Shown here: positions 22,380-40,001 of the stretch, in pieces
Numbering within the stretch: position 1 is the first letter of the stretch
Layout of the letters: each line of letters opens with the position of its first letter
Assembly: GCA_963616935.1 (NCBI GenBank)
Contig: CAVEMS010000001.1
Coordinates: forward strand, 33,273-97,272
Length of the DNA stretch: 64,000 nt
Direction: 5' to 3'
Origin: a bacterium
Lineage (GTDB): Bacteria; Bacillota_I; Bacilli_A; RFN20; CAG-826
Translations under genes and position numbers: made by a program
Notes under the pieces: generated by a model
The model's input: only the letters and a program-made list of their open reading frames with translations
The model's database searches: none
What the model was told of the DNA's origin: nothing

Positions 22380-24671
22380 TTAGTTAATGCTGACGACCGA
22401 TGCGTAGAATGGAGTGATGACGAAGGTGTTCCAAGAGCACCAGCCAACCGTCAAAATAAGACCGGCTTTGCCAGTGTTTACGTCATCGCTCAAGCTTAGT
22501 GTCTTATTGATAGAGCTCGAAGAGAACATTGCTTTACCGCCTGAAATTGTTACGGTTGTGAACTCGGTGTTCCAATTGCCACCGGTCGGGTCGCAATAAG
22601 GGGCGATGCCGATGAAATTGTCGAGTTGCATTAAGGAATCCGGTATCGGATATTGCGTTGTAGTTTCTGGAATCGTGCCGAGCCAATATTTAGCCGTACG
22701 ATCGCCTGCGCCTCCGCCGAGTCCCATCGTGAATGTGACTTTATCGTAGGATGAGTAATTGAAGGCGGGGAGAGTCATGGTAACGTATGAGCCATCCATT
22801 CCGTTCATTGAGAACTGAAGACTATTTTCAACGGAGTATCCACTGCCTTGAGCAGCGATGGCGCTTCCACTTCCTGTTATGCCAGAAAGGATGCTTGCAC
22901 CGCTATCGGTGAATTCAAGAACCTTGGTGGCCGATGCATTCGCGGCATCGAGCCAAGCTTGCATCTTTGAAGTGATAAAGTTCGCCTTCTCATAGGTGGT
23001 CATGCAATCGGAAAGCGCCTTATACTTTTTCAATTGATCGGAGTAACCGGCGACCGGGGTGTCCGGCAATGCAGTTTCGATTGAAGGCATAAGGGAGAGA
23101 TAGTCGCAGTCGAGAGTGACGAAAGGCGTCAAGAAGAGCCATGCCTGGCAACATTGAGTTGTCTTAATTTCCAGGCCTTTCTTGCCGGTGTAAGTGTCAT
23201 CGTCGAGTTCAAAAGCGACAGTGTTCTTTTCACAATTGTTATAGACGCTAACGCTTTTCCCAGTAATAGTCACCTCGTAGTTTTTATATTTATATTCTGT
23301 AAATCCCGACTGGTCACAACTGTCTTTACCAAGAGAGTTGCCGTTTAGATAAGTTCCGTACCAAACCCCTGCGGAGAAACCAAAGGTGAAATGAACGCCA
23401 CTTACCTTGGAGAAATCGAAGGCGGGTAAGCCTAGACCTAATGATGCATTATAGGTATCTCCCGGATAGAAGCCTTGTGATCCTTCGGGCGTACCTGGAT
23501 AAATATTCCACGTGTTGACGTCCGACTGGATATCAGCATCTGAGCGAACCGCATAGGCGGCGTTAACCCCTTCGGGAGTTGTGTAATCGCTTTGGTTGTT
23601 TGTGAAAGTTAAAACTTTAGCATTGCTGTCGTCATAATAAGAATCGGTCCAACGGGCAACCAGAGCGGTAGTTGTAGTGGAGACACTTTCGACTTCGTTC
23701 CCGCTTTCGTCGTACCATCCGAGGAATTTCTTCCCGCTCATGGTCGGCGCCTCCGGGAGCGAGCCGATCTCGACCTCGGCGCTTCCGTCGACGTTGTCGG
23801 CCGCCACGTTCTTCAAGGCCACGGTCACCGGGGCGAGCTCATAGGAGAGGCCCGAGACCATGATGTATCCGCGGAGCTCGGTGAACTTGAGTATGAAGTC
23901 GGTGAAGTTCGCCGTCGTCCCGCCCGAATAGGCGATGGTGACCTGGTGCCACGCGTCGTCGTTTAGGAGCTTGGAGCTGATGTCGTGGCCGACGTAGGCG
24001 GTGTCCTTGAATTGGCATAGCGCCGTGAAGCCGACAGGCTCGCTCGCGCTGCCGCCCCCGGCCCAGGATCCCGTGCCGTAATTGCAGTATCTGTACCAGA
24101 AGCTCGCCGATTTGACCTTCCTCGACCCCTCCGGGACGGTGAAGCGGAACTCGGAGCAGTTCTCGTTGCCCGTCGGGTTCACCGGGTCGCCGGTCTTGTT
24201 CGAGCGGGAGAAGTAGATGGCGGTCCTCCCGCCGTCTTTGACGAAGCAAGGTGTCGAATCGACTTTGTCGCTTGAGGCGTCCTTTCCGTTCGCCCCCTGG
24301 TCGACGTATTTGAATTTCTTCGTGTTGACGTTGGCGATCTCGTCGTCCTCGGCGTTCGGGGCGTCGGCGGCCTCGAGCTTTGCGAGGGTGATCTCAGCCT
24401 CCGAGACGTGCTCTTTGGCGGCGTAGGAGTATCTGGCTTGGTCGGCGCTCACGAGGCAGCAGTCGTTGCAGTGCCAGTGCGCCCTCTCGCCCGTCGACGT
24501 CGTGGTCGGGGCGAAGAAGGGCTTCTCGACCAAGGTGTGCGAGGCGTCGTGGTCCGCGGCGTAGGTCGGTGCGATGAGGCCGCTATTGCCGAGCGCGACC
24601 CCGGCCACGCCGATGCCCATCACCGCTGAAACGGCTGTCAAGGCGATAGCCATGATTTTCTTTTTCTTCAT
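22380..24671 (-). CDS. Secreted protein with a Listeria-Bacteroides repeat. Its C-terminal region (about 450 aa) is paralogous to the 31788..34115 protein.
   Basis: Signal peptide MKKKKIMAIALTAVSAVMGIGVAGVALG. Repeat motif GKKFLGWYDESGNEV...ALVARW. The C-terminal two-thirds align with the 31788..34115 protein (TFGFS..., FDCDYL..., YEK..., FTFGLGG...). The 5' roughly 900 nt (about 23740..24650) is strongly GC-rich. Confidence 0.7.
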   Translation of the reverse strand: MKKKKIMAIALTAVSAVMGIGVAGVALGNSGLIAPTYAADHDASHTLVEKPFFAPTTTSTGERAHWHCNDCCLVSADQARYSYAAKEHVSEAEITLAKLEAADAPNAEDDEIANVNTKKFKYVDQGANGKDASSDKVDSTPCFVKDGGRTAIYFSRSNKTGDPVNPTGNENCSEFRFTVPEGSRKVKSASFWYRYCNYGTGSWAGGGSASEPVGFTALCQFKDTAYVGHDISSKLLNDDAWHQVTIAYSGGTTANFTDFILKFTELRGYIMVSGLSYELAPVTVALKNVAADNVDGSAEVEIGSLPEAPTMSGKKFLGWYDESGNEVESVSTTTTALVARWTDSYYDDSNAKVLTFTNNQSDYTTPEGVNAAYAVRSDADIQSDVNTWNIYPGTPEGSQGFYPGDTYNASLGLGLPAFDFSKVSGVHFTFGFSAGVWYGTYLNGNSLGKDSCDQSGFTEYKYKNYEVTITGKSVSVYNNCEKNTVAFELDDDTYTGKKGLEIKTTQCCQAWLFLTPFVTLDCDYLSLMPSIETALPDTPVAGYSDQLKKYKALSDCMTTYEKANFITSKMQAWLDAANASATKVLEFTDSGASILSGITGSGSAIAAQGSGYSVENSLQFSMNGMDGSYVTMTLPAFNYSSYDKVTFTMGLGGGAGDRTAKYWLGTIPETTTQYPIPDSLMQLDNFIGIAPYCDPTGGNWNTEFTTVTISGGKAMFSSSSINKTLSLSDDVNTGKAGLILTVGWCSWNTFVITPFYASVVSIN

Positions 24672-24943
24672 AGGTTTTCCTTTCCTTTTGTTTTAATGAA
24701 ACCCATTTTTATGTTGCTATCTCTAAGCAAACGGACGACAGCAAATAAGAGGATTTCTTTCCTATAAAAGGATTGTAACCGCTTTCAAATTGGCGGTTTG
24801 CCTATTTGCTTACATTTATAGGCGGTTTTCTTCCATTTCGACGATTTTGTTCCATATGGGAGTCTATTTTCATTTGAATTGCCGCGTTCATATCAATTTA
24901 TATGCACATACGCGTGGCAAAAAAGGTTATATTCTTTTTAACC

Positions 24944-25681
24944 ATGGCGAAGATCGAACTTAGAAAATTATCCGTCACTTATAAGAACAAGAAGACGAAA
25001 GAAGAAACCGTTGCCTTAAAAGAGATGTCGGAAGTTTTTGACGACTCTTCCTTTAACGTCATTGTTGGGCCATCGGGATCTGGCAAGACGACTCTCTTAA
25101 AAGCCATCGCCGGTTTGGTGATGATCGAAGGGGATATCCTTATTGATGATGTCGATGTGTCTAGTCTTTCCCCATCCTTAAGGCAAGTGGCATATGTGAG
25201 TCAGGAATATATTCTTTATCCACATATGACGGTCTTTGATAACATCGCTTTCCCTTTGAAGGCGGTCAAAGCCTCGAAAGAAGAGATAATCGAACAAATC
25301 GCCGACATATCCAATTCTTTGGGACTCCGCCATTTATGGAGCAGAAAGCCCAAAGAACTATCGGGCGGACAACAACAACGAATTGCCTTGGCGAGAGCGA
25401 TAGCGAAGAAACCTTCCATCTATCTATTCGACGAGCCATTATCGAATTTGGCTAGCGATATGAGGGAGGAAGAGAGAAAACTGATTAAGGAAGTCTCGAA
25501 GAAATATGGCGCGACTTCTTTATATGTAACCCACTCGATGAAGGAGGCTTTCGCCATCGCCGATAACATCATCGTCATTAACGAAGGGAAAGTGGTGGCT
25601 AGGGGAAGCGTAGAAGAAATCCGCCATTCATTGGAGCCGACGATAAGGGGCATGATCAATGCTGAGTTCAATTCTCTATAA
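24944..25681 (+). CDS. ABC transporter ATP-binding protein, MalK/MsmX-like nucleotide-binding domain without the C-terminal regulatory domain
   Basis: Walker A (GPSGSGKTT), signature LSGGQQQRIALARAI and Walker B DEPLSNL are present. The protein is only about 246 aa. Confidence 0.8.
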   Translation: MAKIELRKLSVTYKNKKTKEETVALKEMSEVFDDSSFNVIVGPSGSGKTTLLKAIAGLVMIEGDILIDDVDVSSLSPSLRQVAYVSQEYILYPHMTVFDNIAFPLKAVKASKEEIIEQIADISNSLGLRHLWSRKPKELSGGQQQRIALARAIAKKPSIYLFDEPLSNLASDMREEERKLIKEVSKKYGATSLYVTHSMKEAFAIADNIIVINEGKVVARGSVEEIRHSLEPTIRGMINAEFNSL

Positions 25682-26144
25682 CGACGATGTGGTCAAGAAC
25701 ATCAAAAGAAGAATAGTCTTTTCTATACTTTTCATAGCCTTGTTCGTGATATTGATGGTCCTCGAAAGCGCACTCCTATGCCTTCTGATATCCGACGAAA
25801 CGATAATTTGGATAACGGTTGTTTTATCGGTATCTTTGGTGCTTTTCTCTTGGGCGATCATTTATCTTGCAACCGTTTATCTTGCGTCGTCCCTAGCGAG
25901 AGAAAGATTGATCAAGCGTTTTCAAAAGACGGAAGGAAAGACGTTTTCTGGAAAGATTATTTCCGCTTCAAAGACGAGGACGCCGATGAAATTCATCCAA
26001 GCCTATGCCGTTGAGATGGAAATAGACGATGGGATTAGGAATTTCTATTATGACTCCGCGTTAGGTGAAACACCATTTAAGGAAGGGGAGGAAGTTGCCC
26101 TTTTAATCAAGTCCAACTTCATTTGCGAGGTGCGCCATGAATAA
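25659..26144 (+). CDS. Hypothetical membrane protein (161 aa)
   Basis: Two or three hydrophobic helices. Overlaps the upstream ATPase gene by 23 nt and the next gene through an ATGAATAA overlap. Confidence 0.5.
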   Translation: MLSSILYNDDVVKNIKRRIVFSILFIALFVILMVLESALLCLLISDETIIWITVVLSVSLVLFSWAIIYLATVYLASSLARERLIKRFQKTEGKTFSGKIISASKTRTPMKFIQAYAVEMEIDDGIRNFYYDSALGETPFKEGEEVALLIKSNFICEVRHE

Positions 26145-26727
26145 ATTCTTCGGAAAGATCAAAGAGTGGTGGTATCTATATCTCGCTTTTTTGATATTGA
26201 TTCCTATCGGCGTCTCTTATCTCACCTATGTCGTTAACCTCCCTAGAAACGAAGAGACCATTAGCATCTTCATCGCTTCATGCAGCACAAATGTGAAAGA
26301 ACTTAGAGCGGAACTAGAAGAAGAAAAACCGCAATATCTACGTCAAATCTCCATTAAATCATACGTTTATGACGATAAGGATTTCTCGCAATACTATAAT
26401 TATTTCGGATGCCAGGACGTTGATATCGTCGTCCTTCCAGAGAGCAAAATATCTTCGGGAACGGTCTTGTCTAATTATAAGAAACTTGACGCTTCGCTAG
26501 AATCGGATGCCGCTTCTTATTATTATCCGGAAGGAAGCTCGAGCGCATATGGCAAACTGATCCATAAGAAAGGCGAGGAGAATGGATTGATAACCTATAA
26601 GGATGACAATCACGATGAGGACTATTATCTCTTCTATGGCAAGAATTCGTTGCATTTAGGTGAGATGTCTGGGACTAATTGGAATACTGCGCTTACGTTC
26701 GCGGAAATAATCGAAGGGAAAAGATGA
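26137..26727 (+). CDS. Hypothetical membrane-anchored protein (196 aa)
   Basis: Single N-terminal TM helix followed by an N/Y/D-rich region. Shares an ATGA overlap with the next gene. Confidence 0.5.
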   Translation: MNKFFGKIKEWWYLYLAFLILIPIGVSYLTYVVNLPRNEETISIFIASCSTNVKELRAELEEEKPQYLRQISIKSYVYDDKDFSQYYNYFGCQDVDIVVLPESKISSGTVLSNYKKLDASLESDAASYYYPEGSSSAYGKLIHKKGEENGLITYKDDNHDEDYYLFYGKNSLHLGEMSGTNWNTALTFAEIIEGKR

Positions 26728-27557
26728 AAAGAAAAGCCAAAAACGTAGATTATGCGATTGGGAACCTTCCGCATAACAGGAAGGAGCAGTTTTTCGATAT
26801 CGCCAAGCACCGTTTCTTTTTGCTTCTCGGAATAGGGTTAATAATTCTTTTGTTTTCGTTGCCAATATTTGCCTCGATGATCTATCGGGATGTTTTATTG
26901 ATGAGTGTCGAGGCAAGCGAAGCGACTAGCGCCGAGAAAGAAGCCACTTCTTTCAGCGTTAACCTCCTCTTCTCTTTCCTTTTCGCGTTTTCTTTATTGA
27001 TTCTTTCCGTTGGGTTGTCCGGGATATCAAAGATACTTAGGGAATTGATATATGATGAGCCGATTTTCTTCAAAGACGATTTCTTTAGCGGGATCAAGGA
27101 AAACGCCAGGCAACATTTAATTCTTGCCCTTTTTGCAGGGATTTTTTGGTTTTTTGCCAATTTCATTTCTCTTATTGCAAACAATTTCATTCTCAAAGTC
27201 ATTTTCGTCGGCGTTAATATAGCCTTCATCTTTCCGCCCGTTTTCGTCGGCTTCTTCTTGGCTAACGTGTATTCGAATAAGTTCTTCAAAAACCTTCAAA
27301 GCGGTTTCGTTATCTATTTCAAAGCGTTCCCGTCGGTCATCTTGACGTTTGTTTCCATCTACGCCCTATCCTTTCTCCAATACGTGCCATTACTAATCGT
27401 CAAATATTTGGTGATGGCCGCTTTGACGGTGATATACGTTCCTTTCGCATTCCTTATCTCCTTCCTAAATCAAATTCGCTTATACGACGAACTCATCAAC
27501 AAAGAGCAATTTCCTGAGTATTATCACAAGGGCTTGGCGGACTATTACGGCAAATGA
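26724..27557 (+). CDS. Hypothetical polytopic membrane protein (possibly a YesL/DUF624-like accessory protein)
   Basis: ATG at 26724 overlaps the upstream stop. Six or more TM helices, with no EAA permease motif. Confidence 0.5.
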   Translation: MKRKAKNVDYAIGNLPHNRKEQFFDIAKHRFFLLLGIGLIILLFSLPIFASMIYRDVLLMSVEASEATSAEKEATSFSVNLLFSFLFAFSLLILSVGLSGISKILRELIYDEPIFFKDDFFSGIKENARQHLILALFAGIFWFFANFISLIANNFILKVIFVGVNIAFIFPPVFVGFFLANVYSNKFFKNLQSGFVIYFKAFPSVILTFVSIYALSFLQYVPLLIVKYLVMAALTVIYVPFAFLISFLNQIRLYDELINKEQFPEYYHKGLADYYGK

Positions 27558-27655: not shown

Positions 27656-30616
27656 ATGAAGAGAAGACTGCTGGCGCCATTATTCGGAGGAATCGTTTCC
27701 TTCGCGTTGATATTCACGATCGCTTCGGCGAACGGCGTTTTGACCTTCGCTAACGAAGCGAATGCTAAATGGGTGCATTATGCGAAAAAAGAAGCGACGG
27801 CTTCTTCTAATGGCGTTAGGGAATATTGGGTCAAGTGCGGCGCCAATCATTATCAATTCGAAGCACCTTCTTCTGGAACGGTGGAGGACGCTTTGACGTA
27901 TGACCTCTCCGAATTCGTGGAAAACGATCCTCGTTACATCATCTATGTGCCATCTAGCGTCAGCGCCTTCTATAGACAAAGCGATTCTCTATACGATTTC
28001 TCGGAATTCTCTTCGTCGGAATATCTTTTGGGAGACGGATATCGCGTATCAAACGTTTCGGGCGTTCTTGGGAATTCGTCGCGATATGAATTCGTCAAAG
28101 ACGATAAATCACCCGTTTATTCGGCGATGTGCATGACCGTCACCGACACCATAGGGACGAATGATGAATTGACCGCTTTATCGAAGACAATCGAAAAAGG
28201 AGATACGGACGGTTACTACGTTTTGACTTCGGATTTGTCTTCGCCAAGCGGTTGGACCGATAGCGACGATCATCTTTTCAAAGGGGTTTTCGATGGTAGG
28301 GGACATACGATCGATAAACCGATTACATGGGGCAAAAGGCTCTTTGGGAAAACGTATGGCGCGACCATTAAAAATGTCGATTTCACGAATATTGAGGTTT
28401 TTTGCGTTTTAGGTACCGAACTTACCGATACGACGATTGAGAATTGCTCTTTTAGCGTGGGCCCGGCGATGAACACAGCCTCCGGAGGAGCGCTTCTATG
28501 CGACGATTTGGGAAGCGGATCTCTTCTTAAGGATGTCTATATTGATATGGGCGAGACGAGCATGAAGTGCTCTTGGCTCGCACAAGGAGTCGTTTCCGCA
28601 ATCGCTTCCTATAACGTCTCTTCGGTTGATGATCCAGTGACTTACGATAATGTCACCTTCAGAGGACTAAACTCCACCAAGATGTATTTGTTTGACGCCG
28701 CTTATAGGGGGTTACGTCCGTCGGAAATAAATTACATAAGCACCTATTGGTTCATAAAAGACGGCGCCACCAATTACGATATCAAGTATGTTTCCGGCGA
28801 CGAAAACATCCAAATCGCCGCCACGATGATAAAGGATGAGATCTATAACGCGACGGGGAAGAGTTTGCCGCTTACGGCCATCGCCGCCTCCGACGTCTAT
28901 GAAAACCAAACATCGAGCATCATCGTTGGATCTAGCGTCTCGGCAACGGCGGAGAAGATAAGCCTTCCGACGGAGACGAGTTCTTACACCCTTAAAGGAA
29001 TCGGCAAAGCCATCTATTTGAATTCGGCCGATTCGAAAGGCTATCAGCTCGGCGCCCTCAAGCTATTGGACATATTGGTTGGATACGATTATTTGGGCGG
29101 CGAGATCTCGACTTATGATGTCTCTGACGTCAATAACATCGATTTGCCGTATATCGATATCTCCTATACGCCGTCATTCGGCTATCGTAAATGCGATTGG
29201 AGCGACATCGGATTCAGCTCCTCTTTCTATACCGATTGTTATCGTTTGGGATATAACACCGAATTCGATCGTTATTCGTATTATCTTCGCGCTCCAGCCG
29301 TTGGAACTTTCGCAAGTGAGGAATGCTTCCATACTTCACTGCAAATTATTTACCCAGGCACTTACTATTCTTCGCATCCGAACTGGTTTGCCGTCGATTC
29401 GAGCGGAAATAACTATGGAAGCGACTATCGGCTATGGCAACTTTGCTTTACCGCCCATGGCGATAATGCGGAATACCAATCGTTATTGGAGCAAACCGCT
29501 TCGACGGTTATCTCTTTGTTTAAGAATTGCGGCAACGCCAATATTCGTTCTCTCTTGTTTGGAACGGGCGATAGCATGAATGTCTGCCATTGTTCGACTT
29601 GCGAGGCGAAAACGAGCGAATATGGATCGATATCCGGAACGGTTGCGAATTTCTGCAATGATTTAAGGGATAAGATCTACGAGAACATAGCGGAAACGGG
29701 AAGGGATTCGGTTGACATCGGCTTCTTCTCGTATTGTGGCTATAACAGCGTGCCGTTTAAGAATGGTAGTCCGACCATAACGTTAAAAGACAACGTTTAT
29801 GTGCTTGTGGCTCCGATTGAGGCCAATTTCACCTATTCCCTTAACGAATCTTGTAACAGCTCCTTGAAAGAGATATTCGTGAACTGGGCGAAGGTCGGCG
29901 ACACGCACGCTTGGCTATATGACACCAATTTCAATAACTATCTATTCCCACACAATTCCTTCAAATCAAATGCCGAAAACATCAAGATTCTTAAAGATAT
30001 CGGCGTGAAGTTTATCTATTTGCAAGGGCAGCATAATTCGACGCAGCCAAGGACCGGCTTTCACGCGTTGAAGAAGTACGTGCACGGCAAATTCATGGTC
30101 GATGCGGATAATTCCGATTACGACGAGTTATTAAATAACTTCTTCGCTTCTTATTATGGTGAAGGAGGGAATGAGATGAGGACCTTCTATAACGAGATGG
30201 TCGCCCATTTAGAGAGTCTTGAAACGGATTCGAGCAAGACGAAGATACTTTACGCGAGCGATAGCAGATCGATATATGCCGCGATAAACGACCGGGATCT
30301 ATGGGATTACGACACTTTGAAGAGTTGGGCTTCTCTTTGCGACACCGCCTATTCGAAGGCCACGACTGAGAAAGCCAAGAAACATATTTTGGCTGAATCG
30401 ATATTCCCTCGTTTTGCCTTATGTTCCTTGTTTACCAAATATACGGATTGGAATGGCGGCAAAGTCTTAGATTTTAGCGGAACTGGGAAGGCGGCGTTAA
30501 AAGCGTACCGCGAGGCCTTCAAAACGGATGCCGATGCGCTTGGCATGACGATTACGACCGAAAGTAAAGCGAATACCTCTCTAAGCGATTATTATTCCGA
30601 TTGGGGCATTGCCTAA
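27656..30616 (+). CDS. Large secreted protein (986 aa). Its C-terminal half is paralogous to the 34137..36116 lipoprotein. Possibly glycan-active.
   Basis: Signal peptide followed by beta-helix-like repeats (NVDFTNIEVF..., TIENCSFS...). The C-terminal region carries CFTAHGD...NVCHCSTCEAK, shared with the 34137..36116 protein (CYTAHGD...NACTCSACRDN). Confidence 0.65.
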   Translation: MKRRLLAPLFGGIVSFALIFTIASANGVLTFANEANAKWVHYAKKEATASSNGVREYWVKCGANHYQFEAPSSGTVEDALTYDLSEFVENDPRYIIYVPSSVSAFYRQSDSLYDFSEFSSSEYLLGDGYRVSNVSGVLGNSSRYEFVKDDKSPVYSAMCMTVTDTIGTNDELTALSKTIEKGDTDGYYVLTSDLSSPSGWTDSDDHLFKGVFDGRGHTIDKPITWGKRLFGKTYGATIKNVDFTNIEVFCVLGTELTDTTIENCSFSVGPAMNTASGGALLCDDLGSGSLLKDVYIDMGETSMKCSWLAQGVVSAIASYNVSSVDDPVTYDNVTFRGLNSTKMYLFDAAYRGLRPSEINYISTYWFIKDGATNYDIKYVSGDENIQIAATMIKDEIYNATGKSLPLTAIAASDVYENQTSSIIVGSSVSATAEKISLPTETSSYTLKGIGKAIYLNSADSKGYQLGALKLLDILVGYDYLGGEISTYDVSDVNNIDLPYIDISYTPSFGYRKCDWSDIGFSSSFYTDCYRLGYNTEFDRYSYYLRAPAVGTFASEECFHTSLQIIYPGTYYSSHPNWFAVDSSGNNYGSDYRLWQLCFTAHGDNAEYQSLLEQTASTVISLFKNCGNANIRSLLFGTGDSMNVCHCSTCEAKTSEYGSISGTVANFCNDLRDKIYENIAETGRDSVDIGFFSYCGYNSVPFKNGSPTITLKDNVYVLVAPIEANFTYSLNESCNSSLKEIFVNWAKVGDTHAWLYDTNFNNYLFPHNSFKSNAENIKILKDIGVKFIYLQGQHNSTQPRTGFHALKKYVHGKFMVDADNSDYDELLNNFFASYYGEGGNEMRTFYNEMVAHLESLETDSSKTKILYASDSRSIYAAINDRDLWDYDTLKSWASLCDTAYSKATTEKAKKHILAESIFPRFALCSLFTKYTDWNGGKVLDFSGTGKAALKAYREAFKTDADALGMTITTESKANTSLSDYYSDWGIA

Positions 30617-30684
30617 TCTCTTCGATTCTTATTTTGAAGCGGTTTTTGCGGAGATTTTTGGATATTTGAGCAATGAATGGCTCA

Positions 30685-31596
30685 TTATTCCTTTAGCTTA
30701 TGTATTTCGCGATACTTGCCTGGCGCTAAGCCGTAGGTCTTTTTGAAAGTGTTCGAGAAATGAGACATCGAGGAATGGCCGATCAAATCGCATAGCTCAG
30801 TTATCGAGATGTCGCTATTGACCAAAATGTCGCGAGCGCTAGAAAGTTTGACCTTCTGTATATATTCGCCGATTGGTTCATTCATGTACTCTTTGAATAA
30901 GCGGGATAAGTGGGTCTTCGAATAATTCGTCCTTTTGACGACGTCGCTTACATTCCAATGGAGGTTGTTTGGGTTGTTTATTTCGGCTAATAGATCATTG
31001 AGCCATCCTGGTCTATTGTTCTCCGATAACGATTCCTTTTGATTGAACATCGGCTCTAAGAGATTGAAGACTAAGAAAGATATGAGGGAAGCGATTTTGT
31101 CATTTGCCTCATCCTTTTCCTTTATTTGGCTCAGCATGAAAACGATTTTCTTTAGACGCGCTTCGCTCAAGACGAAGGAATTGTATTTCTTCGGATCGAA
31201 TAACTCAAAAAACGAAGGAATCATCGTAAGGGCTATCTTTTCGAATCTCTCTTTCTTCAAACAGACGCAATAATGGCTCGAATTTTCTGATGTTTCGATG
31301 ATCATATGGGCGTTTTGCGGAAACAAGAATGTGCAATTGAGTTTCTTTTCTTGATGCTCCACGCCGTCGATTATATGAGTGTAGGTACCTTGGAAGAAGA
31401 TGATGAACTCATAGAAGTCGTGATCGTGATATGTCGGGTAGCCGTGGAAGACGTGGTGGAACTTGAGGAAATCGTCATAATTCAAATCCCTTTGGGTGTC
31501 GTAGATCAATTTAACGGGTTTCTCGAGATACATATTTGTTATAAAGGATAATGAAGAGGCCGCCTTTGTCAATATATGAATGGTGAAAAAAAGCAA
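30685..31596 (-). CDS. AraC-family transcriptional regulator (cupin-like N-terminal domain plus AraC HTH)
   Basis: The C-terminal region ...THLSRLFKEYMNEPIGEYIQKVKLSSARDILVNSDISITELCDLIGHSSMSHFSNTFKKTYGLAPGKYR is a canonical AraC HTH. The start is uncertain, at either 31596 or 31535. Confidence 0.8.
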   Translation of the reverse strand: MLFFTIHILTKAASSLSFITNMYLEKPVKLIYDTQRDLNYDDFLKFHHVFHGYPTYHDHDFYEFIIFFQGTYTHIIDGVEHQEKKLNCTFLFPQNAHMIIETSENSSHYCVCLKKERFEKIALTMIPSFFELFDPKKYNSFVLSEARLKKIVFMLSQIKEKDEANDKIASLISFLVFNLLEPMFNQKESLSENNRPGWLNDLLAEINNPNNLHWNVSDVVKRTNYSKTHLSRLFKEYMNEPIGEYIQKVKLSSARDILVNSDISITELCDLIGHSSMSHFSNTFKKTYGLAPGKYREIHKLKE

Positions 31597-31741
31597 ATTG
31601 AATATAAGGATTTCGATATCTCATTTTGCGTCAACGATAATGGTAATCATTCGATATATAGCCAATTATTATGTATTTTATTGCGTTTTAACCGTTCCAT
31701 AGGCGTTAACGAAAACGGAAAGAATAGACAAATGATGAAAG

Positions 31742-31768
31742 AAAAAAACGCCCGACGACAATCGGGCG
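31742..31768 (-). terminator. Rho-independent terminator ending the 42610..31788 operon
   Basis: On the minus strand: CGCCCGAUUGUCGUCGGGCG followed by UUUUUUU, immediately after the stop at 31788. Confidence 0.6.
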
Positions 31769-31787
31769 TGGCGAGAAGGAGTCGTTA

Positions 31788-34115
31788 TTAGGCTTTGATG
31801 CCGGTGATGGGGGATATCACAAAGAATTCCCAGCACGTTCCGCCGAGGCTAAGCGTTAAAGCGGCGGTGCCGTTATTGACGTTTTCGTCCAGTGTGAATT
31901 CTTTTTTGATATACGTTCCGACGAAGGAGATTTTTCCATTAGAGATGGTGACTTTCGTGTCTTCGGCAAGCTCCCACCCCCTGGTTGTGGTTTCTGGAGC
32001 AAGACCGATGAAGTTATCGGCCGATGGCGATGCCGAATAGGAGTCCGGCGCCGCTCCGAGGAAATATTGCATCTTTCCTCCGCCGCCGTTTCCGCCAAGT
32101 CCGAATGTGAAGCTTACTTTGCTATATTCAGAGTAATTGATCTTCGGGAAGGTGAGTGTCGCGTAAGCGCTTGAAAGGTTGTTAACTTGTCCGACGAAAT
32201 AATCGTCGCCAAGGGAGAATGGGAGGTTTTCGCCGAGGCTTCCTGCTGTTTTGGCTGCCGTTTTCTTGTCAGAGCTACAATCGAAACCGCTACTTGAGGA
32301 GACGATGCCGGAATTATCGGTGAAAGTGATGAAAGGAGTGTAGGCTTCGACCCACGCTTTCATCTTGGCTGACAATGGATTGGCCGTCTTTTCGTAAGAG
32401 GTCATAAGGTCCATAAGCGATTTGTATTCGCTTATTTGACCGGCGTATCCATCAACTGCGGCGTCTGGAAGCGCGTCTTCGATGGCTGACATGACCCCTA
32501 GATAATCGCAGTCGAACGTGCGGAACGGAGAGACGTATAGCCATCTCCAATTCGCGCCGGTCAAGGTTATCTCAAGGCCTTTTCTGCCATGGTATGTGTC
32601 ATTATCAAGCGTAATCGAGGTGTTCGCTCCGGTATAGGCATTGCTCACCGTTACGTTTTGTCCATCGATGGTCACGGTGTAGTTATAGAAGCTCTTGGTC
32701 GCTAAGTCCCCGATCGCCGTGTTGTTGAGCTTGACGCTGGAAACGCTGCCGCTGAAACCGAAGGTGAAACCGATGGGTGAGGTGGCGGCGGAGAAATCGT
32801 AAGCGGGGAGCCCTAATCCGGCGACCACGCTCATGCTGTTAGGATATAGGAAGCCTTGTGAGCCGTCGCCTCCGGGATAATATTCGCTTGTGATGTCGCT
32901 ATCCCTGTCCGTTTCTCCTCTCACTGCGTATTTCCAAGTTGCCTCGGATGGCTGAGTGTAGTCGGTGTCATTATTGGTTAATTTCAAAACGGCATCGTTA
33001 TTCTCGTTAAAATGGGTCGCGCTCCAGCGAGCGACGAGAGTCATATCGTCGTTGACTTTATCGACTTTTTCGCCTTCTTCGTTATACCAACCGATGAACT
33101 TATGCCCAGCGATGTCTTCTGGCGCGCTTGGGAGTTTGTTTGAAGCGACTTTGACGCTCGTATTCGCTCCATCGGCTGTGACGTTCTTTAACGTGACGTC
33201 ATAGGCGCCTTTTGCGACATGGACGTTGATTTCGAGACTCATGGCGAATTCTTCGCAAACGACCTTCAAAATCGCTTCGCCTTTCGCTTTGGCGACGATT
33301 TTGCCATCTTCCCAAACGGCTACGGATTCGTCGCTTGAAACGTATTTCAAAGCGTACGTTGCTTTGTTTTCTCCTTCGGTGAAGACGATTTCTGGGGTGA
33401 ATTCCGTTTCGTATCCGTCTTCTCCTTCCATTTTGTAAGTGGCGAGGTTAAGCTCATAACCATTCTCTCCGTCTTCGAGATTTCCTAAGGCTAGATGCAA
33501 ATCGCTATTGACGACATTCACTTTTAGCGTTTGCGATAAGGTCACGCCTTTTGCCTTGGTGTGGATAACATATGATGATTGGCCGTATTTTAAGCCAACT
33601 ACTTTGATTTTCGAATTTTCGTATGTCAAAGAGGCGATGTCGTCACTTTCCATTTCGAGCGTGGCGTCGATTATCTCGCCTTTATAAAGGACATAGGCAT
33701 CGATGGAATATGTTTCGTCTTTTCCGATGCTCACCTCAAGGTCGCTCATAACGATGCGTGGAGCTTGGGAAATGGATTTTACGGTGACATCGCAAGTCGC
33801 TCTGACGCCTCCTATTGAAGCGACTATGACGCAGTTTCCCGTTTTAAGGGCTTCGACTTTGCCGTTCGAGACGCTTGCGACTGAGTTATCGCTGCTTCCC
33901 CAAGTGACGGGGCCAGAAAGGTTTTGAAGCTCATATGTCAGAGTTATGCTTTCATATTGCTCAAGCGAGACGCTCGTTTGGCTTAGTATGATCTTTGGCT
34001 CAACCAGTGAGGAGCCGCTGTCATTTGAAGGGTTCTCGCTTTTTCCCTCGCCGCAAGCGGCAAGAAGACAGGCGGAACTAAGGAGAAGTAAGATGGAAGA
34101 TATTTGCTTTTTCAT
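31788..34115 (-). CDS. Surface lipoprotein with Big_2 (bacterial Ig-like) domains, a Listeria-Bacteroides repeat, and a C-terminal domain paralogous to the 22380..24671 protein
   Basis: Lipobox LLLSSACLLAACGEG. Big_2-like sequence (VTWGSSDNSVASVSNGKVEALKTGNCVIVA). Repeat motif GHKFIGWYNEEGEKV...LVARW. C-terminal homology to the 22380..24671 product. Confidence 0.7.
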   Translation of the reverse strand: MKKQISSILLLLSSACLLAACGEGKSENPSNDSGSSLVEPKIILSQTSVSLEQYESITLTYELQNLSGPVTWGSSDNSVASVSNGKVEALKTGNCVIVASIGGVRATCDVTVKSISQAPRIVMSDLEVSIGKDETYSIDAYVLYKGEIIDATLEMESDDIASLTYENSKIKVVGLKYGQSSYVIHTKAKGVTLSQTLKVNVVNSDLHLALGNLEDGENGYELNLATYKMEGEDGYETEFTPEIVFTEGENKATYALKYVSSDESVAVWEDGKIVAKAKGEAILKVVCEEFAMSLEINVHVAKGAYDVTLKNVTADGANTSVKVASNKLPSAPEDIAGHKFIGWYNEEGEKVDKVNDDMTLVARWSATHFNENNDAVLKLTNNDTDYTQPSEATWKYAVRGETDRDSDITSEYYPGGDGSQGFLYPNSMSVVAGLGLPAYDFSAATSPIGFTFGFSGSVSSVKLNNTAIGDLATKSFYNYTVTIDGQNVTVSNAYTGANTSITLDNDTYHGRKGLEITLTGANWRWLYVSPFRTFDCDYLGVMSAIEDALPDAAVDGYAGQISEYKSLMDLMTSYEKTANPLSAKMKAWVEAYTPFITFTDNSGIVSSSSGFDCSSDKKTAAKTAGSLGENLPFSLGDDYFVGQVNNLSSAYATLTFPKINYSEYSKVSFTFGLGGNGGGGKMQYFLGAAPDSYSASPSADNFIGLAPETTTRGWELAEDTKVTISNGKISFVGTYIKKEFTLDENVNNGTAALTLSLGGTCWEFFVISPITGIKA

Positions 34116-34136
34116 GGCTTTTATCCTTTCTTTTAT

Positions 34137-36116
34137 TTATAAGCCCCAGGAATTGAAGACACTATCCATGGTGGCATTTTCGTTTAAATAAGTGACATTG
34201 GCTTTGTTGCAGTCTTCCTTGAAGGATTTGCGGAGGTTTTTGATGGTTTCGGAGCTGTATTTGCCGCTGTAGTGGTTTATCAAGGCGTATCTTGGGAAGA
34301 TCGATTCGAGAGTGAGGTTCTCATAAAGCGCTTCGTACAATGTGCGGTTAGTGTCCTTGCATTTGAGAATCGCTTCCTTGCCTTCCTCGATATAATCGAC
34401 CCATCTATCGAGCAATTTCTTCGGCCAGAAACGGGATTGGGCGATGTTGTTATAGATCGTTCCGTTGATGTCGCTGCTATAAGTGGTCTCGATATATTCG
34501 CACTGCTCTTGTAATTCGTGGAAATATTTGAGCATCACGTTCTTCGCGTCGCCGAAATAGTTGGTGAAGAAATCATCTACTATATCGTTATAGTCAGTGT
34601 TAACGTCGAACAAAGAGACGGAATTGAGGTATTCCTTAAAACGGCCGAAGCAAGTGACGGCTCCGTTATTGTGCTGCCCTTCGTTATACATATACATGCC
34701 ATTATTTTCGTAGGCGAAGCGATAGCTCTCGATCATCGTGTCATAAGTGTTCAAAGGATAGAGATAATGGCTGAAATTCGTTTCATAGAACCATAGGTAG
34801 ACTTTGTTTGACAAAGCGCCCCAGCCTTTGATGTAATTGGCGTAGTTTGAGTTATCTTCGTCATAGAAGCTCTTGGTGTAGCAAGCGCTGATTGGAGCGA
34901 TATAGGGTCCGACGTGTTCATTGCAGACGACGTCAGGGCTGGTCGGGATGTATTTCCCATCCGCGCCAAGCTTGACGCATGGCTTTTCTGTTCGGTGATA
35001 AGCGAAGAAAAGAATGTTCAATTCGCGTTTCGCTTCGCCGGTTTTTTCGGCTTCCGCTTCCAAATAGGCTTGGATCTTGTCATCTAATTTATTGCAGAAG
35101 ACGACGACGGAGCCGCTCTCTGCGCCGTATTTGGCGACGTTATCGCGGCAAGCAGAACATGTGCAAGCGTTCGCGTTGTCTTGGATGGTGAAGGTTAGGG
35201 CGCCGACGGTCTTATTGCTTTTGAGTTTTTCGACCATCTTGCCGTAAACCTCATTGACCATGGCGTCGAGTTCGGTTGAATCACCATGGGCCGTATAGCA
35301 AATCTGATCACCGCCATCGCTATACCATTTTGGGTGGTAGGTGTAGTATTCCGACGGGGAACCGTCGCTATTTTCTTTCGGCAAATAGTCAAATGAATTA
35401 TGGAAGGATTGGATGTTGCTATCCGAATAGAAAGTTTCCGAGGTCGTTAAGAAACCCATCTCATAAGATGCGGTGTTCGAGATTTTGTTGCTTTGGGTGT
35501 GAAAAGTGACATCCGGTCTTTCTACGATGTTGATGTCCGGAAGGGTTTTGCCGTCTTTCGTATATTTCACGATGTTATAGCTATAACGAGTGAAGCCGAT
35601 GACGTGTTTAAGGAAAGTGATGGCGGCTTGCTGATATCCGTATTCGCCTTCGACGCGGATATAAACCGCGTTTTCCTTGGTGACGATTTGGTAGCCGCTT
35701 GGGCCAAGTGCCTTATCGGAGACGGGGATATTTTTCGAGGCTTGATAAGCGGAATCGCCAAGCAAGATGAAATGGTCGTCCGTCAGGTTTTCCGGTAGTG
35801 AGTCGACCAAAAGGCAAACGCCGGTGGCTGATTCAATATGGGTGGCTATCGTGCTGGCCGCTTTCTTGGCGTTCGAATCGCCTTCTTCATAATAGATTTT
35901 GTAATCGGAATGTCCATTATCAACGAAAACCCTATCCGATTCCTTAACATCCACATCGTGAAGGGTTCCTTCTTGGAAGTGGAGTTCGTCGTCGCTAGTG
36001 ACGCTGATGACGTTGTCGATATTATCCGAGCTATCATCGGTGTGATCGCCCGAACAGCCGACTAAGGAAAGAGGCAGGAGAGAGAGGAGAAGCAATTTGT
36101 TTAATTTCTTATTCAT
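34137..36116 (-). CDS. Lipoprotein of unknown function. Paralogue of the C-terminal half of the 27656..30616 protein and carries the conserved CxCxxC motif.
   Basis: Lipobox LLPLSLVGCSGD. Shared blocks include WYSDGGDQICYTAHGD, NACTCSACRDN and FYETNFSHYLYP. Confidence 0.65.
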   Translation of the reverse strand: MNKKLNKLLLLSLLPLSLVGCSGDHTDDSSDNIDNVISVTSDDELHFQEGTLHDVDVKESDRVFVDNGHSDYKIYYEEGDSNAKKAASTIATHIESATGVCLLVDSLPENLTDDHFILLGDSAYQASKNIPVSDKALGPSGYQIVTKENAVYIRVEGEYGYQQAAITFLKHVIGFTRYSYNIVKYTKDGKTLPDINIVERPDVTFHTQSNKISNTASYEMGFLTTSETFYSDSNIQSFHNSFDYLPKENSDGSPSEYYTYHPKWYSDGGDQICYTAHGDSTELDAMVNEVYGKMVEKLKSNKTVGALTFTIQDNANACTCSACRDNVAKYGAESGSVVVFCNKLDDKIQAYLEAEAEKTGEAKRELNILFFAYHRTEKPCVKLGADGKYIPTSPDVVCNEHVGPYIAPISACYTKSFYDEDNSNYANYIKGWGALSNKVYLWFYETNFSHYLYPLNTYDTMIESYRFAYENNGMYMYNEGQHNNGAVTCFGRFKEYLNSVSLFDVNTDYNDIVDDFFTNYFGDAKNVMLKYFHELQEQCEYIETTYSSDINGTIYNNIAQSRFWPKKLLDRWVDYIEEGKEAILKCKDTNRTLYEALYENLTLESIFPRYALINHYSGKYSSETIKNLRKSFKEDCNKANVTYLNENATMDSVFNSWGL

Positions 36117-36127: not shown

Positions 36128-39088
36128 TTATTTCGTTACTTCGAAGGTGAAGGATTCGTAAGAAACGTTACCAGCGCTATCCATCGCTCTGATGCGTAGG
36201 GTATAGGTGCCTTCGTGCTGTGGCTTGAAGGCGTTATGGGTGCCAAGATAATAAGTCTGCCCATAACTTGTCTCCACATAGACGGAAACGATTGGGTTTT
36301 CGTCGATGTCGTCGGTGACGATGTAGGAAGGAACTCTAACCGTCTCTCCGACTTTGACGGAGGAAGGAATGGTTCCGGTGACGGTTATGATTGGCGCCGT
36401 CGCATCGTCGATGTTAATCGCGAAGATGAAATTCGTTTCGTTATCGCTTGAATCGAATGCGGAGTAAGTGGCGATGTATTGTCCGTATTCGGATATTTTG
36501 ATCTGATACTCAATGGTGGCGTCGACGGCGTTAAGAAGATTTCCGTTGACGTCTTTTGCGATATTGCCGTTTGGGTCTTTGACGGTTACGGTGCAAGAGA
36601 CATTCGGATCGAGGACGTCGCTAGCCGTTATCCTATTGATCGTCACATAGTCCCCATAAGCATAGCTTCCGCCGTAGTCGCCATGGATCGCGATCCTTGG
36701 TCCGCCATGGTCGCTAGTCGAATAGGAGATGCTTTGATTGTCGATTTTGGATAGTTTTAGTCCCGCCCCGGTTTTGGCGTTGATTAATTCCAAAGAAAGG
36801 TAGACTTTGCCAGAACTAAATCCGGTAAAAGACGCGCCATCATCGTAAGAACGAGCCTTAACGCCGGTGCCGTTGAAAGCGAAGAGGCCATCGGCATAGC
36901 TTACCGCCAAGGTGTTTTTCTTTAAGAAGCTCGACGAAGTGACATAGGCTTTGCCGTTGATTCCATAGGAAATCTCGCCTGAGGCGTTAGCGATCAAGGA
37001 AACGGTGAACTTTTCGTTTTCGTTTTCGCTATCGGTGAAGCTGATGTTTAGTTTCTTGAAGTCGAATCTTTCGAGGTCGGTCGATAGGGAAATAGAGGAG
37101 TTTTTGGCGATTATCGGGTTAACGAAATCGAAGGACGCATTGCCCTTTTTCGTCGCATAGAAACTGACATCGTTATCGCTGACATCGAAAGTCATGTTCT
37201 CGCCGACGAGATAGTTTTCGATGGCGAAACGATCGATTCCTTTTTTCCTGACGTAAGGATTGATCGTTTGGACTTTGTAAGTCTTCGTGATGTTCTTATA
37301 TGAATAGACGAATTGCAATTGTTCTTGTGAGGAGGAGATTTTCGGGACGAAGGAAGAGCCGCTTTCGGCATCGTATGGATAGATTCCGTTATCGACTCTG
37401 ACGTTCATCGAAACGGGCGTCCCGGTGCCGGAAGAATAGTCATAAATTACCGCTTTCGGCAAAGTATAGATGCCATCGGATATGTAGTACTTCGGGAATT
37501 TGGGTTCTTCGTATAGGACCGCTCCATCGTTGGAGGTGGCCGTGTATTCGTAAGCGTACTTAGATTCCTGGCCGATTACGTCCTTGGCGGTGAAGGCGAC
37601 CGAATAAGTTCCGAGTTCTTTTGGGATGAATCCGTTTTCGTCGCTTGGATAAACGACGCCGTCTTTCTTGACTTCGAAGGAGCCTTTGAGCTCGCCTGAC
37701 CCGCCCGTCATTTTGAATTTCGGGAACGAAAGGGGTTCGCCTTGCTTCCCGCTTGAAGCGATTTCGCCATCGGCTTCGATCGTTATCTTTTCGACGTTTT
37801 CGTCGGTAGTGACTACCACCGTTTTTGAGGAGATGTTTCCGGTTTTGTCTTTGGCTTCGTAGACAATGCCGTAGACGCCATCTTTTGCGACTTCAAAACG
37901 GCCGTCTTTCGCTTTGACGTTCACCATATTCACGGAACCGTAGTTGTAATATACGCGCGAAGTGACTTCGCACTCGCCATCCATATCGTCTTTCGCTTTG
38001 GCGGAATATATAGGGTAGGAGAAGCCTTTTTTGGCGCTAGGCAATTCGCCGGCTGGCAAATCGACGGTTATTTCCGGTCCCTCGTTATCGATGATGGTCT
38101 CGGTTGAGATGTCGTGCCCCAAAAGGTCGGTGATTAAGAAATTCGCGCTTGAGGAGCTATATCCGCGGGCATAGATGCTTAAGTTGACTAAGCTAGATTC
38201 GAAGCCATCCCATAAGGTACTGACGTACTTCGGATCGTCGAAATCGACCACAAAGATGTTGTTAACGTATAAAGCGTTCTCGTCTTTCTTGTATTTAAGG
38301 GTGATGACCGAACCATCTTCGCCTGGTTTTCTATCTGGATAATCCGGGGAATAGGAACCATAGAAACTATGGGTGATTGGAGTGCCGAAATCATCGTTGA
38401 TATGTATTTGGTTGAATTTCTTTTCGTATCCCGTGAGCAATTGATCGGGGCCCTTGGCCGCTATATAAGTCCAAGGAGCCGAAAGGCCTTCATTCGACGC
38501 TTTCGCGCGGACGGTCATAACGTTATCAGGGTTATCGGTTTCCGATAATGATATGTATAGTTCGTTGAAATCGATGACGCCGAGCATTGAAGGGGTGACG
38601 AATAGCTCGATGATATTGCCGTCTTTCGATAGATCGATTGGCTGTGATAAGGAAAGGGTTTCGCCTTCGGCCAAAGAGACATATAAGCCTTCTTTGTTGT
38701 ATGTTCTATCGCTTGTTTCGAATGAGGAGATCGATTTGGTGCCGCTAAAAGAGAGAAAGGGGCTTCTCACCAAGAAAGTCTCCGTCTCGGAATAGCATTT
38801 GCCATCCTTTTCAGCAGTGAAGTGAAGGGTATAGACGCCGACTTCCGATAAGATGACCTCCGATTGGTAATAGGAAACACCGCTTGGGAATTCGATTACG
38901 CAATCGTAAGTGATGCCGTCTTTCATTAGGGAAGGCAAAACGAAAGTCGAATTGAACTTGTACTCGTCCGCAATGCTTAATTCGGCCATTTTCGCTTTCG
39001 GAGAGGTCGCGAATGAAACGGAAGTCGATGCCGCGAAAGGCAGAATTAGAAGAGAAGGGACGACAAGCAAGCGTTTGGACTTTTTCAT
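36128..39088 (-). CDS. Large secreted protein (986 aa) with repeated Ig-like/beta-sandwich segments. Function unknown.
   Basis: Signal peptide MKKSKRLLVVPSLLILPFAASTSVSFA. Low-complexity beta-strand-rich repeats. Co-operonic with the sugar ABC genes. Confidence 0.65.
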   Translation of the reverse strand: MKKSKRLLVVPSLLILPFAASTSVSFATSPKAKMAELSIADEYKFNSTFVLPSLMKDGITYDCVIEFPSGVSYYQSEVILSEVGVYTLHFTAEKDGKCYSETETFLVRSPFLSFSGTKSISSFETSDRTYNKEGLYVSLAEGETLSLSQPIDLSKDGNIIELFVTPSMLGVIDFNELYISLSETDNPDNVMTVRAKASNEGLSAPWTYIAAKGPDQLLTGYEKKFNQIHINDDFGTPITHSFYGSYSPDYPDRKPGEDGSVITLKYKKDENALYVNNIFVVDFDDPKYVSTLWDGFESSLVNLSIYARGYSSSSANFLITDLLGHDISTETIIDNEGPEITVDLPAGELPSAKKGFSYPIYSAKAKDDMDGECEVTSRVYYNYGSVNMVNVKAKDGRFEVAKDGVYGIVYEAKDKTGNISSKTVVVTTDENVEKITIEADGEIASSGKQGEPLSFPKFKMTGGSGELKGSFEVKKDGVVYPSDENGFIPKELGTYSVAFTAKDVIGQESKYAYEYTATSNDGAVLYEEPKFPKYYISDGIYTLPKAVIYDYSSGTGTPVSMNVRVDNGIYPYDAESGSSFVPKISSSQEQLQFVYSYKNITKTYKVQTINPYVRKKGIDRFAIENYLVGENMTFDVSDNDVSFYATKKGNASFDFVNPIIAKNSSISLSTDLERFDFKKLNISFTDSENENEKFTVSLIANASGEISYGINGKAYVTSSSFLKKNTLAVSYADGLFAFNGTGVKARSYDDGASFTGFSSGKVYLSLELINAKTGAGLKLSKIDNQSISYSTSDHGGPRIAIHGDYGGSYAYGDYVTINRITASDVLDPNVSCTVTVKDPNGNIAKDVNGNLLNAVDATIEYQIKISEYGQYIATYSAFDSSDNETNFIFAINIDDATAPIITVTGTIPSSVKVGETVRVPSYIVTDDIDENPIVSVYVETSYGQTYYLGTHNAFKPQHEGTYTLRIRAMDSAGNVSYESFTFEVTK

Positions 39089-39089: not shown

Positions 39090-39998
39090 TTATCCTTTGA
39101 TACCTCCCATGGTTAGGTTTCCAAGTAATTTCTTATGGAAAATTAAGAAGATGACTAGAACTGGCAGAAGCATTAAAGCGGCTGCGGCCATACGCGCTGG
39201 AGCGTTGGAAAGTTCGTTGATGTTAGAGAAAACCATACGATACATGCCGACGGCGATCGTTGGATAGCTGTCTAAATAGACGAGAGGAACTTGGTAATCG
39301 TTCCAGAAGGTGATGAAGTTGATGAGCATGACGGTGAAAAAGAGGGGTCGGACCATCGGCAGGATGATTTGAAGCAAGACCCTAAGATTACTTGCGCCGT
39401 CGATTCGAGCCGCTTCGATGTAAGCGTTAGGCAAGGAGCGGAAATAGTTATAGAAGACGATGAAGTAAAGACCTAAGAAATTGGCTTTGAGCAACCATAC
39501 GCCCCAAATTTGGTCATATAATCCGAAGCGTCTTGCCATCGCGATTTCGGCTGGCAAATTGCCGACTATCGGCAAAATCATCGTGATGACGACGATTAAG
39601 TAGATGATTTTTGAGAACTTGTAGTCGAATTTGGCGCATAGATAACTCGTGATGCAGGGGACGATGGTCGCGAAGAACGCACATCCTAAAGCGTATAAGA
39701 AACCATATAGGAATAATTGAGGCAGCATCACGTATTCGACGCCGCTTGCCGTTTGAATTTCGATGTAGAAGAGGTTATAGACGTTCTCAAAATTGGTGAG
39801 CACCCATTCTTTTGGTAGTCCGACCGGATTGATGGCGAAATCGGTGTTCGGCGCTTTGAAAGCGGTCATCAAAGCCCAGATCAAAAGAGTCAAGATCGCT
39901 AAAGAATAGAGAATCAAAAAGATAACGATGATGATTGATAAAGGCGAGATTTTCTCGCGTTTCTTGGCAACTGGCCGATGAAAGACGTTCATTCTCAT
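39090..39998 (-). CDS. Carbohydrate ABC transporter permease (MalG-like)
   Basis: Six TM helices and the EAA motif (IEAARIDGASNLRVLLQIILP). Confidence 0.85.
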   Translation of the reverse strand: MRMNVFHRPVAKKREKISPLSIIIVIFLILYSLAILTLLIWALMTAFKAPNTDFAINPVGLPKEWVLTNFENVYNLFYIEIQTASGVEYVMLPQLFLYGFLYALGCAFFATIVPCITSYLCAKFDYKFSKIIYLIVVITMILPIVGNLPAEIAMARRFGLYDQIWGVWLLKANFLGLYFIVFYNYFRSLPNAYIEAARIDGASNLRVLLQIILPMVRPLFFTVMLINFITFWNDYQVPLVYLDSYPTIAVGMYRMVFSNINELSNAPARMAAAALMLLPVLVIFLIFHKKLLGNLTMGGIKG

Positions 39999-40001
39999 TC
40001 T

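Follow-up and report, generated by a model that had tools for sequence, protein, structure and literature searches.

Proteins carrying the DUF4838 domain (Pfam PF16126) form a large and diverse group with two characterised members, both of which act on host-type N-acetylglucosamine (GlcNAc) glycans. DUF4838 is the catalytic domain of the glycoside hydrolase (GH) families GH163 and GH185, and a shared Pfam domain alone does not define a CAZy family (PMC10570127). The founder of GH163, BT1035 from Bacteroides thetaiotaomicron, is a surface endo-beta-N-acetylglucosaminidase that cuts GlcNAc-beta1,2-Man (Man, mannose) in complex N-glycans (PMC10154615), and the founder of GH185, Sp_0475 from Streptococcus pneumoniae, is a 6-sulfo-beta-GlcNAcase that uses substrate-assisted retaining catalysis (PMC10570127). 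Here we describe a locus encoding two DUF4838 proteins (A1 and A2), a second, unrelated pair of surface proteins (B1 and B2) and an ATP-binding cassette (ABC) carbohydrate importer, all within a 64,000-nucleotide stretch of bacterial DNA (lineage Bacillota_I; Bacilli_A; RFN20; CAG-826), corresponding to positions 33,273 to 97,272 of contig CAVEMS010000001.1 in assembly GCA_963616935.1. We refer to this whole stretch as the window, and all coordinates given below are positions within it. Taken as a whole, the explanation that we regard as probable is that A1 and A2 are old paralogues belonging to DUF4838, a superfamily of retaining glycoside hydrolases of the GH20-like kind that includes GH163 and GH185.

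A1 and A2 are paralogous DUF4838 proteins

27656-30616, plus strand: A1, a DUF4838 protein of 986 amino acids with an N-terminal signal or anchor peptide
34137-36116, minus strand: A2, a DUF4838 lipoprotein of 659 amino acids with lipobox LVGC at Cys21

A first-pass annotation of the window had placed open reading frames (ORFs) for A1, A2, B1 and B2 at the coordinates listed here and below, and all four were recovered at those positions. It had also proposed that A1 and A2 share long collinear blocks, which pairwise alignment bore out: residues 366-985 of A1 are collinear with residues 64-659 of A2 over ~620 amino acids (BLASTP 203 bits, E 2e-59, 26% identity), and all of the blocks quoted in support (LCFTAHGD/ICYTAHGD, NVCHCSTCEAK/NACTCSACRDN, DTNFNNYLFP/ETNFSHYLYP and IFPRFAL/IFPRYAL) fall within the alignment. 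Neither this similarity nor the one between B1 and B2 is due to low-complexity sequence. The heading of the annotation implied that a cysteine-containing domain is common to both families; it is carried only by the A pair, and the B family is unrelated.

The suggestion of a DUF4838-like family was confirmed by profile search. PF16126 matched both proteins well above its gathering threshold of 26.6 bits (A1, 132.6 bits, residues 491-845, E 2.3e-38; A2, 97.1 bits), covering positions 11-324 and 16-324, respectively, of the 325 in the profile. The accompanying label, an enzyme of unknown function, is out of date, because DUF4838 is the catalytic domain of the two families introduced above. PF16126 was also present in all 64 clusters of A2-type proteins and in all 14 clusters of A1 orthologues, the latter at 44-81% identity. 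The N-terminal ~360 residues of A1 gave no family match and no significant Pfam or PDB match, and NCBIfam returned no match for A1, A2, B1 or B2. Sequence and profile searches of the PDB found no solved sequence relative of A2 or of the A-family profile, and a tblastn search of A2 against plasmids gave zero matches. The structural model of A2 (predicted local distance difference test score, pLDDT, 91.6) has a GH115/GH20/GH84-like fold composed of an alpha/beta domain at the N-terminus (GH20b/GH67N-like), a (beta/alpha)8 barrel and, at the C-terminus, a bundle of helices, and so displays the GH20-like architecture of DUF4838; its nearest solved folds include GH115 and GH84.

The extracytoplasmic location proposed at first pass is supported by the lipoboxes found in A2, B2 and the substrate-binding protein (SBP) of the importer, as well as by the N-terminal hydrophobic segment (signal or anchor) found once each in A1, B1 and a 986-residue protein rich in immunoglobulin (Ig)-like domains. 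In A1 this is a single hydrophobic segment at residues 4-22, while the lipobox Cys21 of A2 is kept in 39 of 42 homologues. Judged from these signals, both DUF4838 proteins would be exported and held at the cell surface, A2 as a lipoprotein and A1 by its N-terminal signal or anchor.

A conserved cysteine cluster lies beside the putative catalytic aspartate

29444-29602, plus strand: Cys/Asp motif of A1, with C597 (29444-29446), D639 (29570-29572) and C644-x-C646-xx-C649 (29585-29602)
35148-35300, minus strand: putative metal site and catalytic Asp of A2, with C273 (35298-35300), D313 (35178-35180) and C318-x-C320-xx-C323 (35148-35165)
34785-34787, minus strand: conserved Tyr of A2, Y444

The codons of all of these residues were verified. 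In an alignment of 42 sequences that takes in the A1 domain, A2-type proteins and distant relatives with identities as low as 22%, C273, D313, C318, C320, C323 and Y444 (A2 numbering) are invariant, as are the A1 equivalents C597, D639, C644, C646, C649 and Y755 in 14 A1-type sequences, so that the proposed conservation of the cysteines among homologues held in both sets. The arrangement C...D...CxCxxC occurs in every one of the 106 unique full-length DUF4838 homologues gathered, with the exact D-x4-CxCxxC spacing in 104 of them.

Conservation beyond this lineage was examined by an in-silico mutation scan, in which point mutants of A2 were scored against the Pfam PF16126 model, whose construction did not draw on this lineage. 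Relative to the wild type (97.1 bits), scores fell for C318A (90.5 bits, -6.6), C320A (93.0, -4.1), C323A (92.9, -4.2), D313A (92.4, -4.7) and Y444A (90.7, -6.4), and replacement of all four cysteines by alanine cost 14.4 bits (82.7), versus 1.6 bits for a control cysteine pair (C341A and C398A, 95.5). Because mutating these columns lowers the score of the Pfam model, conservation of CxCxxC, D313 and Y444 extends across DUF4838 in general; that of the distal cysteine does not.

In the A2 model, C273 follows a strand residue and lies just before helix 280-300, D313 is on the loop after strand 306-308, and CxCxxC runs into helix 321-330, placing C273, D313 and CxCxxC all at the C-terminal ends of adjacent barrel strands, which form the catalytic face. 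From their position and conservation, we infer that the catalytic acid/base is D313 (D639 in A1), located in the loop that follows barrel strand 4, and that Y444 (Y755 in A1) is the tyrosine that stabilises the transition state or oxazoline. The spacing between the two is 131 residues in A2 (D313-Y444) and 127 in Sp_0475 (D309-Y436).

A similar layout is found in some GH42 beta-galactosidases. For GH42 (Bca-beta-gal, 3TTS; Gal42), PMC8573354, which cites the Bca-beta-gal structure, gives E148 as the acid/base and C113, C153, C155 and C158 as zinc ligands, and describes the zinc as structural, stabilising the catalytic domain. These enzymes and the A proteins share, on a (beta/alpha)8 barrel, an acid/base-x4-CxCxxC motif with a distal cysteine ~40 residues upstream, the spacing being C597...D639-x4-C644-x-C646-xx-C649 in A1 and C273...D313-x4-C318-x-C320-xx-C323 in A2. 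Homology of the A domain to GH42 was not found, and the likeness is a positional parallel only.

Since GH42 has the same layout and the motif sits on the catalytic face, it seems likely, by analogy, that CxCxxC together with C273 (C597 in A1) forms a structural Zn(Cys)4 site. Such a site would tie the end of strand 3 to the loop between strand 4 and helix 4, thereby fixing the catalytic loop; with CxCxxC starting five residues past D313, it would brace the Asp-bearing loop without redox chemistry. Two points weigh against this picture of the active site. The C273A mutant scored 0.4 bits above the wild type (97.5 bits), which makes the distal cysteine an unrewarded column in the Pfam model, and the ligand that takes the place of C273 may, judging from this, differ elsewhere in DUF4838. 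The correspondence of D313 and Y444 to D309 and Y436 of Sp_0475 is positional, one of numbering, conservation and fold.

The A proteins appear to be exported, and cysteine pairs in CxC and CxxC arrangements are capable of forming disulfides, so the four could instead make a pair of disulfide bonds and thereby stabilise the enzyme outside the cell, with no metal involved. We consider this unlikely because DUF4838 includes a large cluster of proteins without signal peptides, presumed to be cytoplasmic, where disulfides are not to be expected (PMC10570127), and because the hosts are gut anaerobes. In addition, the Pfam model, which represents the whole family, has CxCxxC as conserved columns, and the identical arrangement of acid/base-x4-CxCxxC with a distal cysteine binds zinc in GH42.

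Proximity to the conserved aspartate, on the catalytic face, would also suit a catalytic or redox centre, whether a Zn-activated cysteine nucleophile (as in GH127/GH146), a Lewis-acid metal or an Fe-S cluster, and glycosidases of clan GH-P do have Zn(Cys3Glu) sites with a cysteine nucleophile (PMC10850190). However, GH185 catalysis is substrate-assisted, retaining and inhibited by thiazoline, with Asp, Tyr, His and Gln explaining activity and no cysteine invoked (PMC10570127), and the GH20/GH84/GH115-like fold differs from the (alpha/alpha)6 barrel of GH-P. Furthermore, the signal peptides are of the Sec/lipoprotein type with no conserved twin-arginine motif, which argues against export of a pre-assembled, pre-loaded Fe-S cofactor. 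A catalytic or redox role is very unlikely on these grounds. The first-pass annotation had offered a metal-binding or redox-active site: metal binding stands as the best reading of the cluster, while redox activity found no support, given the Sec/lipoprotein signals and a location matching that of the structural zinc of GH42.

B1 and B2 share a very rare domain of paired beta-sandwiches

22380-24671, minus strand: B1, a secreted protein of 763 amino acids, with the B domain at about residues 343-763 (nucleotides 22383-23645)
31788-34115, minus strand: B2, a lipoprotein of 775 amino acids with lipobox LAAC at Cys21, and the B domain at residues 366-775 (nucleotides 31791-33020)
22341-22363: terminator-like hairpin after the stop codon of B1

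The proposal that B1 and B2 share a C-terminal domain distinct from that of the A pair was upheld by alignment of residues 284-755 of B1 with 307-770 of B2 (488 amino acids, 304 bits, E 3e-96, 42% identity), inside which lie the TFGFS, DCDYL and FT(F/M)GLGG blocks. The shared region opens with a Listeria-Bacteroides-type repeat, followed by ~410 residues that make up the B domain. Upstream of this repeat, which gives a weak Flg_new match in B1, B1 has a unique N-terminal region of ~280 residues and B2 has Big_2 Ig domains. The N-terminal regions of A1 and B1 were unrelated on comparison.

The B domain consists of two homologous beta-sandwiches resembling carbohydrate-binding modules (CBMs), and has the beta-sandwich form that characterises such modules. 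No Pfam, NCBIfam or PDB sequence match covered it, including when the PDB was searched with the B profile. Relatives numbered nine in a word-indexed search of 5.8 billion proteins, and when 1.84 billion representative proteins were searched exhaustively with a profile, 44 were found at E 1e-3 or better, 18 of them at 1e-30 or better; the domain is very rare. Its partner domains are Big_2, HL_N-beta and Flg_new only, and the unit is repeated up to five times in some long proteins. As a separate observation, the B-family homologues at two related loci, L007 (~11886-13740) and L010 (~11922-13734), end after the first beta-sandwich module.

We lean somewhat towards B1 and B2 being surface glycan-binding proteins. 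The chief alternative, that they are enzymes, such as a previously undescribed lyase or glycoside hydrolase of the beta-jelly-roll type, has a smaller but real chance of being correct. Against it, the best structural neighbours of the modules are non-catalytic, namely CBMs, lectins and a Bacteroides surface glycan-binding protein (SGBP); tandem duplication, reaching five copies in the long proteins, is typical of binding modules; and in every case Ig-like or Listeria-Bacteroides repeats carry the module.

A2 and B2 belong to a conserved importer operon

39090-42610, minus strand: importer as a whole (SBP and two permeases)
40928-42610, minus strand: SBP lipoprotein of the carbohydrate ABC importer, lipobox VVGC
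40002-40892 and 39090-39998, minus strand: ABC permeases, BPD_transp_1 in both
36128-39088, minus strand: Ig-rich secreted protein of 986 amino acids, weak Ig-like matches only
31748-31769, minus strand: strong terminator-like hairpin closing the operon, with a 9-bp stem (6 GC pairs) and then a T-run, 19 nucleotides past the B2 stop codon
30685-31596, minus strand: AraC-family regulator (HTH_18 and HTH_AraC), between the operon and A1
24902-27557, plus strand: ABC ATPase and three membrane ORFs (161, 196 and 292 amino acids), with 3, 1 and 7 hydrophobic segments, respectively, in a hydrophobicity scan

The minus-strand operon has six genes, encoding the SBP, the two permeases, the Ig-rich protein, A2 (fifth in order) and B2, with gaps of 1-35 nucleotides. 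The SBP gave sub-threshold matches to carbohydrate and chitobiose SBP models. The C-terminus of the Ig-rich protein resembles the SraP adhesin (4m03, E 1e-4), and a sequence search of the PDB found no solved relative of the protein beyond this SraP-like match. A1 is encoded on the strand opposite to the operon, after the ABC ATPase and the three membrane ORFs, for which neither Pfam nor NCBIfam gave a match. This ATPase and membrane-ORF set also accompanies the DUF4838 cassette at three other loci (L004, L007 and L010) and partly at a fourth (L028), and the AraC-family gene keeps its position in L004 and L032.

The genes for the SBP, the permeases, the Ig-rich protein and A2 form a core cassette that was found at ~25 loci, with A2 identities of 37-83%, in metagenome-assembled genomes (MAGs) from the guts of chicken, human, rabbit and deer that are labelled Bacilli or Clostridia. 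The most constant partner of A2 is the Ig-rich protein (28-73% identity), whose gene adjoins the A2 homologue on the upstream side in nearly all loci. A B2-type gene follows A2 in a Bacilli-like subset, and every B-family locus looked up had both the cassette and this B2-type gene after A2. In the Clostridia cassettes the SBP gene is preceded by a gene for a cytoplasmic GH2 enzyme, and L013, the one such locus inspected, has a different Big_2-bearing protein after A2. At B-family loci a B1-like gene often stands immediately before the SBP gene, as in L002, L008 and L011; in L032 and L033 that position is taken by a Pfam-less protein of 756-771 amino acids. In the window, B1 sits ~7 kb past the end of the operon, with the AraC gene and the A1 unit in between. 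Because a B1-like gene adjoins the SBP gene elsewhere but lies ~7 kb beyond the operon here, this suggests a rearrangement. Some of the MAG labels attached to syntenic loci are widely scattered, including Parasutterella, Bacteroidaceae, Holdemanella and Lachnospiraceae for L006, L007, L010 and L027 (A2 identity 55-58%) and Staphylococcaceae for L004 (83%). These labels look unreliable, and the loci evidently belong to one Bacillota lineage.

The surroundings of A1 and A2 also bear on whether the two are enzymes at all. Their neighbours are large Ig-rich surface proteins, as might be expected if A1 and A2 were catalytically dead DUF4838 domains that serve as adhesins or binding proteins. In contrast, the 106 homologues show no variation at the positions matching the Asp and Tyr of Sp_0475 that have been tested functionally, and the A2 gene is tightly coupled to the importer, such that loss of catalysis seems most improbable. 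With A1 and A2 taken as active glycoside hydrolases, the locus combines an SBP, two permeases, an extracellular glycoside hydrolase, a regulator and conserved synteny, which are the components of a Gram-positive ABC-type glycan utilisation locus, and the gene pattern fits one in which surface capture and cleavage are followed by ABC import and cytoplasmic trimming.

Proposed pathway and substrate

19634-22084, plus strand: beta-mannosidase-like GH2 enzyme (Glyco_hydro_2_N2, GH2 TIM barrel and Ig_mannosidase), no signal peptide
11143-12999, plus strand: second GH2 enzyme (GH2 domains), no signal peptide

Two GH2 enzymes without signal peptides are encoded elsewhere in the window. The enzyme at 19634-22084 has a 71% homologue near the cassette in L027 and is a possible downstream enzyme, loosely linked to the system. 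The enzyme at 11143-12999 gave sub-threshold matches to beta-galactosidase and beta-glucuronidase models, and it has homologues (27-30% identity) that precede the SBP gene at 11 loci, being its immediate upstream neighbours in the Clostridia cassettes. In the pathway that we propose, B1 and B2, each bearing a tandem pair of CBM-like beta-sandwiches held on Ig-like stalks, would capture the glycan together with the Ig-rich protein; A2 would then cut it outside the cell, as would A1, which is expressed from a separate transcription unit; the fragments would be imported by the ABC system; and the cytoplasmic GH2 enzymes would finish the breakdown.

By analogy with the two characterised relatives, in what is a very diverse family, the target may be a beta-linked N-acetylhexosamine glycan. 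Counting against this assignment, none of GH18, GH20, GH29, GH33 or GH85 occurs elsewhere in the 64-kb window, and because no other host-glycan enzyme is present there, the substrate class is only a weak inference.

Other features of the window

13888-17378, plus strand: an 875-residue fusion of an Orn/Lys/Arg decarboxylase and an agmatine deiminase (PAD_porph), followed by a CN_hydrolase
1043-6431: three large ORFs (639, 554 and 542 amino acids) with no Pfam match at E 1e-5
56496-58361, plus strand: a further surface-type protein, whose domains include Flg_new, Flg_new_2 and DUF6273

From their domain content, the decarboxylase/PAD_porph fusion and the CN_hydrolase would form a route from arginine to putrescine whose first two enzymes are joined in one protein.

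Significance

As an exported subfamily fixed in a conserved ABC-importer operon of uncultured gut Bacillota, the A2-type proteins are a candidate for a new glycosidase specificity. The GH185 paper mentions neither cysteine nor zinc (PMC10570127), and no other paper was found on such a site in DUF4838. If the Cys4 metal site is real, it would guide construct design, in particular zinc supplementation and the use of reducing agents, and might bear on the failed crystallisation of Sp_0475; if binding by the B domain is real, it would represent a new carbohydrate-binding family. A broader and more tentative possibility, to which we give slightly less than even weight, is that DUF4838 carries a conserved Zn(Cys)3-4 centre, perhaps needed for activity, and that this operon may represent a previously unrecognised ABC-type system for glycan utilisation in gut Bacillota, in which the surface proteins carry a new and very rare CBM-like family. 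The findings are modestly new, consisting of a family-wide putative metal site that is undescribed in the literature searched and a very rare CBM-like domain without annotation. None of them overturns current understanding.

Comparison with known systems

The solved structures of GH115, GH20, GH84 and GH67 differ from A2 in having only 8-13% sequence identity to it and other catalytic signatures. For example, the H-x-G-G-D-E motif of GH20 is absent here, as the authors also noted for Sp_0475 (PMC10570127). With respect to GH185, Sp_0475-type proteins have no signal peptide and work within the cell on small 6-sulfo-GlcNAc substrates (PMC10570127), whereas A2 has a lipobox and A1 a hydrophobic signal or anchor segment, both pointing to export. 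No equivalent of the sulfate-binding R633 of Sp_0475 could be assigned in A1 or A2.

The B modules have a beta-sandwich fold similar to those of CBM61, CBM27, CBM4, CBM28, CBM22 and Bacteroides SGBP-B, and are likewise carried on surface proteins in a glycan locus. In comparison with GH163, BT1035 has a C-terminal F5/8 type C module, which Pfam did not find in A1 or A2 at E 0.01, and belongs to an outer-membrane system of Bacteroidota, whereas A1 and A2 occur with a Gram-positive ABC importer. What BT1035 and the A proteins have in common is the DUF4838 domain, a cell-surface location (predicted here for A1 and A2) and a place in a glycan-utilisation locus, in which the glycan would be cut before it is imported.

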